From a virus (taxonomy: Duplodnaviria > Heunggongvirae > Uroviricota > Caudoviricetes), in IMG/VR virus record IMGVR_UViG_2698536337_000006: a DNA stretch of 5,958 nucleotides. The stretch is one strand, 5' to 3'. Positions within the stretch are counted from its first letter, which is position 1; each line of letters starts with the position of its first letter. The translations under genes and the position numbers were made by a program. Shown here one piece after another: positions 4,510 to 4,876 of this stretch. Below the pieces are notes generated by a model. The model did not search any database. It was given only the letters and a program-made list of their open reading frames with translations, and was not told the origin of the DNA.

Positions 4510-4876
4510 TCAGAATTTATAACCGACACCCACGATGAAACCGTCAGTGCGCCAGAGACGTGTTGCTGTGGCGACCGTCATCACTTCCGGTCAGCACATC
4601 GTGCGTTTTCCCCTTATTGTCAGTTACGCGGATATAATCCCCGGAAAAAGTCGACACACGGCTGTAAGCCACACCCGCCATCGCATACGCGCTGAACCAT
4701 TCATTCACGCGCACAGACGGCCCCGCCATCACGCTGAACCAGCGGTTACGCACGGAATCTTCATGCCAGCGGGTATCGCTGTAACGGGTCAGCTGGCGAT
4801 TCTTGTCTCCTGCATAGCTGAATGACGTCACCAGCCCCAGCGTATCCGTAAACTCATAACGGTATTTCACGTTAAT
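4510..4876 (-). pseudogene. lom: lom fragment, 5'-truncated at the IS21 junction (Lom/Ail/PagC family outer-membrane protein)
   Basis: Translation VKYRYEFTD...SAYAMAGVAYSR... matches the lambda Lom interior. The homology begins abruptly at 4876 without start or signal peptide. The family's C-terminal strand WRTDGFIVGVGYKF-stop (ends 4510) is in a different frame from the body, which stops at 4544. Confidence 0.75.

Follow-up and report, generated by a model that had tools for sequence, protein, structure and literature searches.

The window, the whole 5,958-bp stretch of DNA analysed here, was the complete S. sonnei draft scaffold CXBL01000210.1 (GCA_001250715.1), and the locus retrieved for comparison under the label L014 was its reverse complement. 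On the minus strand, the order of features was a second lom copy (copy 2, positions 5958–5540), a terminator, a truncated side-tail-fibre gene (stf′), the 5′ end of an IS21-family element, a first lom copy (copy 1), a terminator, stf, tfa, an AT-rich spacer, and an IS1 repeat. Copy 1 (positions 4544–4876, minus strand) comprised residues Ile51 to His160 and a stop codon at 4546–4544, as defined by the list of open reading frames, by alignment with intact lom, and by family PF06316. It represented the 3′ two thirds of a deleted lom allele, the 5′ end of which was lost at a scaffold join. Copy 2 (positions 5540–5958, minus strand) contained the deleted allele from codon 22 to His160 and the stop codon, and ran off the scaffold end. 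The two copies were related by an offset of +996, with 0 mismatches between positions 4414–4876 and 5410–5872. A terminator scan placed an intrinsic terminator, composed of an 8-bp GC-rich stem and a T run, 3′ of copy 1 (positions 4452–4483, minus strand), and a matching terminator at copy 2 (positions 5448–5479, minus strand).

In every finished genome examined, the deleted lom was followed by its proper downstream neighbour, the side-tail-fibre gene stf (positions 1365–4445, minus strand; 1027 aa). Its product had a long Ala/Ser/Thr-rich low-complexity middle and a C-terminus rich in HxH motifs, with two ~35-aa repeats starting GI[VI] encoded at about 2850–3060; no Pfam hit was on record for the whole 1027-aa product. 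The tfa gene (positions 781–1362, minus strand) encoded a tail fibre assembly protein of 193 aa (PF02413). The spacer between tfa and IS1 (positions 120–780) was strongly AT-rich and held only short open reading frames, and many E. coli relatives matched the window only from position 203–238 on. The terminal 31 bases (positions 1–31, minus strand), which we take to be the IS1 terminal inverted repeat, were found as the same 31-mer in the stf–tfa–IS1 loci of L002–L007 together with IS1 transposase genes, and the scaffold would end at an IS1 copy. An IS1 element lay ~800 bp downstream of tfa in the finished genomes.

The stf′ gene (positions 5118–5441, minus strand) encoded a truncated side-tail-fibre N-terminus of 108 aa from a second prophage remnant (PF08400, E 9.8e-37), and diverged from the 1027-aa stf after codon 12. 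Positions 4878–5077 of the minus strand contained an IS21-family element cut down to its 5′ part (transposase codons 1–50), which was recognised through a 53-aa open reading frame (NF033546, E 9.8e-6). This HTH-containing fragment stopped at the scaffold join; the 109-aa form in L016 matched NF033546 with an E-value of 1.6e-16. In that record (CP010829.1; L016 positions 10414–10743), the 109-aa IS21-family frame was followed by an IS3-type element, which apparently interrupted it. The sister contigs L017–L019 ended 38 nt past the stf′ stop codon.

The Lom reading frame ended in ...GSDDGRHSNTSLAH-stop on the minus strand, at position 4544 in copy 1 and at position 5540 in copy 2. Translation of positions 4600–4544 of the minus strand gave DVLTGSDDGRHSNTSLAH-stop, and the end of the Lom frame was SLAH-stop. 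Translation of positions 4593–4510 of the minus strand gave PEVMTVATATRLWRTDGFIVGVGYKF between two stop codons, and this second frame was open only from 4590 to the stop codon at 4512–4510. The last Lom strand with its original stop codon, WRTDGFIVGVGYKF-stop, was located in the second frame at positions 4554–4510 of the minus strand and was identical to the C-terminus of intact Lom; the sequence GVGYKF-stop was not present in the Lom frame. Both frames overlapped in CTGGCGCACTGA (positions 4555–4544). A first-pass annotation of this DNA had described a stop codon of the Lom frame at 4544, a C-terminal strand encoded in another frame, and an overlap between the two frames, all of which were borne out by translation.

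The lesion was defined by alignment to three intact lom genes, one from phage cdtI (199 aa), one from E. coli 181.1, and one from S. sonnei itself. All three alignments contained one clean gap of 83 bp. When the window was compared with phage and E. coli records by megablast, the lom segment was always split into two pieces, which spanned 520 bp in the subject and 437 bp in the query. In all three intact alleles, the missing segment was flanked on either side by a 6-bp direct repeat, CTGGCG (...ACG TCT CTGGCG TGG GGG ... GGT GA CTGGCG CAC TGA...), one copy of which was left in the deleted allele. The sole retained CTGGCG marked the deletion junction at positions 4550–4555 of copy 1 and at positions 5546–5551 of copy 2 (both minus strand), with the out-of-frame remnant of copy 2 at 5506–5550. 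The deletion removed codons Trp160 to Trp186 and 2 nt of Arg187, and left the original last 13 codons and stop codon out of frame. As 83 is not a multiple of three, the lom frame now reads His-stop after the junction.

The annotation had proposed that a deletion within the gene, between short homologies, had shifted the frame as well. That proposal stood, while its estimated sizes were revised, from ~75 bp to 83 bp for the deletion and from 25–30 to 26 (Trp160–Asp185) for the residues missing ahead of WRTDGF. The same lesion had been noted in both copies, and each of them indeed lacked the 83 bp relative to the lom genes of cdtI and E. coli 181.1. Apart from the missing 83 bp, the lom segment and the sequence following it, as far as the beginning of stf, matched the nearest intact E. 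coli allele (181.1) at all but 1 of 437 positions (99.8% identity). The correspondence was not due to chance, and it indicates one recent lesion in a gene that is undamaged elsewhere.

The loss of DNA between short direct repeats, by slipped-strand mispairing or illegitimate recombination, was classically described for lacI of E. coli. The lom deletion resembled these lacI-type deletions in that an exact 6-bp repeat bounded the lost segment and one copy was retained, and it showed nothing unusual among them. Judged from the sequence at the two end points, the simplest mechanism would be slippage, or an illegitimate recombination event, between the two 6-bp repeats. The DNA of the intact region folded no better than shuffled sequences (z = −0.6), and no hairpin or quasi-palindrome was detected in it. 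Hairpin-assisted slippage was rejected on this basis. As no unusual secondary structure was present, the flanking repeats by themselves would have to account for the slippage. An IS insertion was also rejected as the cause of the frame break; the IS21-family fragment was located at the scaffold join, 320 bp from the lesion. In the explanation that we propose, the lom gene of a lambdoid prophage remnant was inactivated on one occasion, in a common ancestor of the S. sonnei strains sampled. A segment of 83 bp was lost between the two CTGGCG hexamers, with the signature of replication slippage or RecA-independent recombination. Translation consequently stops after ...SLAH, and the last strand WRTDGFIVGVGYKF is left out of frame.

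The window represents a draft scaffold assembled from short reads, in which one join is known, and a frame break in such a record might be an indel error of sequencing or assembly in a gene that is intact in the organism. The gap itself was of another kind, namely 83 bp bounded by a direct repeat, unlike an error of 1–2 bases in a homopolymer. The same junction was present in every finished S. sonnei chromosome examined. The junction k-mer read CAGCAACACGTCTCTGGCGCACTGACGGTTTCATCG; the junction 36-mer occurred once each in the six finished chromosome loci L002–L007, including HE616528.1, which were retrieved via the neighbouring tail-fibre protein, and also in ten further loci (L025–L034), which were retrieved via the 160-aa product. 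These finished chromosomes came from different laboratories and dates, and the corresponding protein was also on record from strain Ss046. This 160-aa product was identical to Q3YZL0, ‘putative outer membrane protein [Shigella sonnei Ss046]’, and was found on at least 861 contigs (1,212 indexed blocks). The annotation had itself named an indel error that restores a single frame as a refuting observation. Since the junction occurred in finished chromosomes and in Q3YZL0, the lesion was not a read error; sequencing error was therefore rejected, and its probability is negligible.

Across the collections searched, the junction was confined to S. sonnei. An uninterrupted match to an 80-nt junction probe was found in 0 of 5,426 complete E. 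coli genomes, in a BLAST search whose strict E-value allowed only uninterrupted matches to pass, and in 0 of 50,697 phage records. When BLAST was allowed to bridge the 83 bp, 4,518 of the same 5,426 E. coli genomes matched the probe. The junction 36-mer was likewise found in none of the GTDB species representatives and in none of the JGI metagenome contigs. The lom lesion is thus restricted to one lineage. Intact homologues that naturally end in SLAH, a second observation by which the annotation could have been refuted, were not found; no Lom with this ending occurred outside S. sonnei, and the remaining short sequences in the 90% cluster were partial, being cut off at contig ends. A naturally short form of Lom ending in SLAH was rejected, as only S. 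sonnei entries carried the ending.

The full-length gene in finished genomes encoded 160 residues, MRKVCAAILSAAICLAVSGAPAWA...SLAH. A putative Sec signal peptide, MRKVCAAILSAAICLAVSGAPAWA, was present in the finished-genome gene; both copies in the window were devoid of the 5′ end. The 160-aa product matched PF06316 (Ail_Lom) with an E-value of 1.2e-95 and 319 bits over profile positions 1–159 of 199, compared with positions 1–199 of 199 for intact Lom. The 108-aa lom open reading frame of the window was also recorded with PF06316.

The Ail/Lom family consists of small eight-stranded barrels (PMC4198210). Intact Lom was aligned end to end with the structures of Lom (9wso_C), OmpX, and Ail, with E-values of ~1e-19 for OmpX and Ail. 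PDB entry 9wso contains, as chain C, the solved ‘Outer membrane protein lom’ of 206 aa (2026 PDB copy). Residues 157–199 of intact Lom (SLAWGAGVQFNPTESVAIDIAYEGSGSGDWRTDGFIVGVGYKF) aligned with FSYGAGLQFNPMENVALDFSYEQSRIRSVDVGTWIAGVGYRF of OmpX and ended in ...GVGY[KR]F. The FSYGAGLQFNPMENVALDFSYEQSRIRSVDVGTWIAGVGYRF segment of OmpX presumably comprises the end of strand 6 and strands 7 and 8. By homology with OmpX, the 160-aa product would keep the putative signal peptide, strands 1–5, and half of strand 6, and would be without the end of strand 6, strands 7 and 8, and the C-terminal Phe. The residues aligned to the last OmpX strands were either deleted or out of frame, so that the deleted allele did not encode a full-length Ail_Lom barrel, and it was also devoid of an in-frame aromatic C-terminus of the ...GVGYKF type.

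The BAM machinery uses the C-terminal aromatic signal of outer-membrane barrels. From what is known of the family, a product of ~5.5 strands without the terminal aromatic residue is not expected to assemble in the outer membrane, and the lom allele would consequently be a pseudogene. The gene tables of three finished chromosome records (L002, L006, and L007) listed no product at the position of the deleted lom, which would fit annotation as a pseudogene. Compared with the lom genes of lambda and of E. coli prophages, the allele was the same gene, with window DNA 98–99.8% identical to lom of E. coli and cdtI, and it shared with them the position between J and stf and the terminator. It differed from them in being 83 bp shorter, with a stop at residue 160 of 199 and neither the last 2.5 strands nor the terminal Phe. 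The retained part was homologous to the eight-stranded barrels OmpX, Ail, PagC, and Rck, whereas these members are complete with an aromatic end and the window allele is incomplete.

A truncated Lom might still function, either as a shortened barrel or through a programmed ribosomal frameshift at CTGGCGCACTGA that re-joins the last strand. The open reading frame showed no other damage and differed very little from intact alleles, and both the putative signal peptide and the terminator were retained. However, near-identity to intact alleles would also be expected of a recent lesion, no slippery heptamer was evident in the sequence, and no product was listed in the gene tables of the three chromosome records. 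Even with a frameshift, the protein would be 26 residues short, without strand 7 and the last part of strand 6, leaving an odd, incomplete set of strands. For this reason a ribosomal frameshift would not rescue Lom, and we regard a functional truncated form as extremely improbable. The reading of the allele as a pseudogene was therefore preferred.

The presence of two copies in the window depended on the scaffold join at position 4877. This position was N in CXBL01000210.1 and ‘a’ in the window; L014 and the window agreed at every other position. Copy 1 stopped there and the IS21 fragment began, and the flanking sequences were non-contiguous in the finished genomes examined. Owing to the join, any reading across positions 4870–4885 was not genomic, which applied to the tail KTRQLLT of the 53-aa open reading frame and to the GTG-started 108-aa lom open reading frame. 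Sister scaffolds of the same accession series broke in the same part of lom, where L009 and L012 contained runs of N. In L008 (positions 7114–8327), a single N was located ten bases further upstream in lom, and the sequence was joined to a P2-type tail-fibre gene. The stf downstream in L008 was cut after 858 aa by an IS. The L008 scaffold is another instance of a join at the lom repeat boundary. The start of copy 1, ATTAACG, coincided with the first base of a 32-nt stretch common to both S. sonnei lom alleles. Copy 1 starting at this shared stretch indicates a repeat boundary in the assembly graph.

The two alleles belonged to different genomic contexts. Wherever it was read (26 contigs), the context of the 160-aa product was J, deleted lom, stf of 1027 aa, and tfa. 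The 108-aa stf′ was preceded by an intact lom of 199 aa, which was a different allele, in CP010829.1 and in four longer drafts (L017–L020). This second S. sonnei lom was divergent in its first 90 codons and was located at positions 9338–9937 of L016, 7178–7777 of L017, and 3720–4319 of L019. As this intact lom resides in the second prophage remnant, S. sonnei is not left without any lom. Copy 2 of the window matched the deleted lom allele as far as the terminator and, past it, the stf′ locus, with the switch inside a segment shared by both loci. From the right end of the deletion to stf codon 12, the two loci showed four differences in ~143 nt. When L017 and L019 were compared with L016, the distinguishing positions (AAA/AAG, A/T, C/T, and T5/T6) were found in mixed combinations. 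Such mixed states are to be expected of a collapsed repeat, and may reflect either the collapse of a repeat during short-read assembly or genuine gene conversion between the two prophage remnants.

A Sanger pipeline built on Velvet, SSPACE, and GapFiller has been used to assemble 299 S. sonnei samples; it places N at joins, and its description warns that these greedy tools make false joins (PMC5320598). The accession series suggests that the window assembly was made by this pipeline. Like the false joins of SSPACE/GapFiller, the window contained a single N between sequences that are not neighbours, duplicated sequence, and a break at a repeat boundary; the comparison presupposes that the window record came from that pipeline, as the series suggests. 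The N lay at the junction in the deposited record itself, and the arrangement was absent from the finished genomes examined. The N at 4877 and the discordant stf′ context together indicate that the two copies were most likely one locus written twice. The second window copy would thus be the same locus, duplicated by the short-read assembler and scaffolder, and an artefactual origin of copy 2 is most likely.

Alternatively, both copies may be real, the deleted lom having been copied upstream of stf′ by gene conversion or homologous recombination. Copy 2 carried the deleted allele over its whole visible length, from codon 22 to the terminator, and was then followed by stf′. The loci were identical enough for recombination, with stretches of 87, 49, and ~39 nt, L017 and L019 were mosaic at the few sites 3′ of lom that tell the loci apart, and one further similar place with a two-copy arrangement was reported. 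Against this, the N of the public record was located exactly at the border of copy 1, and the IS21 fragment adjoined an internal lom position at which contigs also broke in the sister assemblies. Moreover, the 160-aa product was found in the context J–lom–stf1027 in the 26 contigs read (1,212 blocks indexed), and the other stf′ loci with lom reaching that far (L016–L021), among them four longer drafts from the same project, had an intact lom. Two real copies were therefore considered unlikely, and the duplication by the assembler was retained as the explanation. The annotation had treated the copies as two that either postdated the lesion or derived from one template; two independent genomic copies were not supported as stated, whereas derivation from one template held up, probably at the level of assembly. 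In either case, both copies carry one mutational event. Taken together, we are highly confident that lom was inactivated by the 83-bp repeat-bounded deletion and is a pseudogene, with a second copy that most likely arose during assembly.

The allele is an ordinary pseudogene, and its 160-aa product has been in public records, under the name ‘putative outer membrane protein’, from the time of the Ss046 genome. A literature search for the lesion in S. sonnei found no specific description of it. For work on similar records, scaffolded short-read drafts can show one repeat-flanked locus twice, and positions of N and finished genomes should be checked before interpretation. The 36-base junction provides a clean S. 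sonnei-specific marker.

Expressed Lom was recently reported to give strong protection against lambda-vir, perhaps by superinfection exclusion (PMC12366544), and work cited in PMC4198210 linked Lom to adhesion to buccal cells. The loss of lom may therefore remove a function of the adhesion or superinfection-exclusion type from the prophage remnant, and the deleted lom could be used as a natural loss-of-function control for the protection against lambda-vir (PMC12366544). Nothing in the present data indicates selection for the loss. If it was selected, the loss might remove a surface protein or a lambda-type block of adsorption; that it was both selected and lineage-defining in S. sonnei rather than neutral decay, with the deleted allele really spread by gene conversion to a second prophage remnant in some isolates, appears very doubtful. 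Gene decay, pseudogenes, and IS expansion are well known in Shigella. The present case agrees with this pattern in that an accessory gene was inactivated in a host-restricted lineage, within a prophage remnant flanked by IS1, IS21-family, and IS3-type elements, and differs in that lom was lost by a small deletion rather than by the more usual IS insertion. The deleted lom thus has little biological weight of its own, and adds one more decayed prophage accessory gene to those of Shigella.
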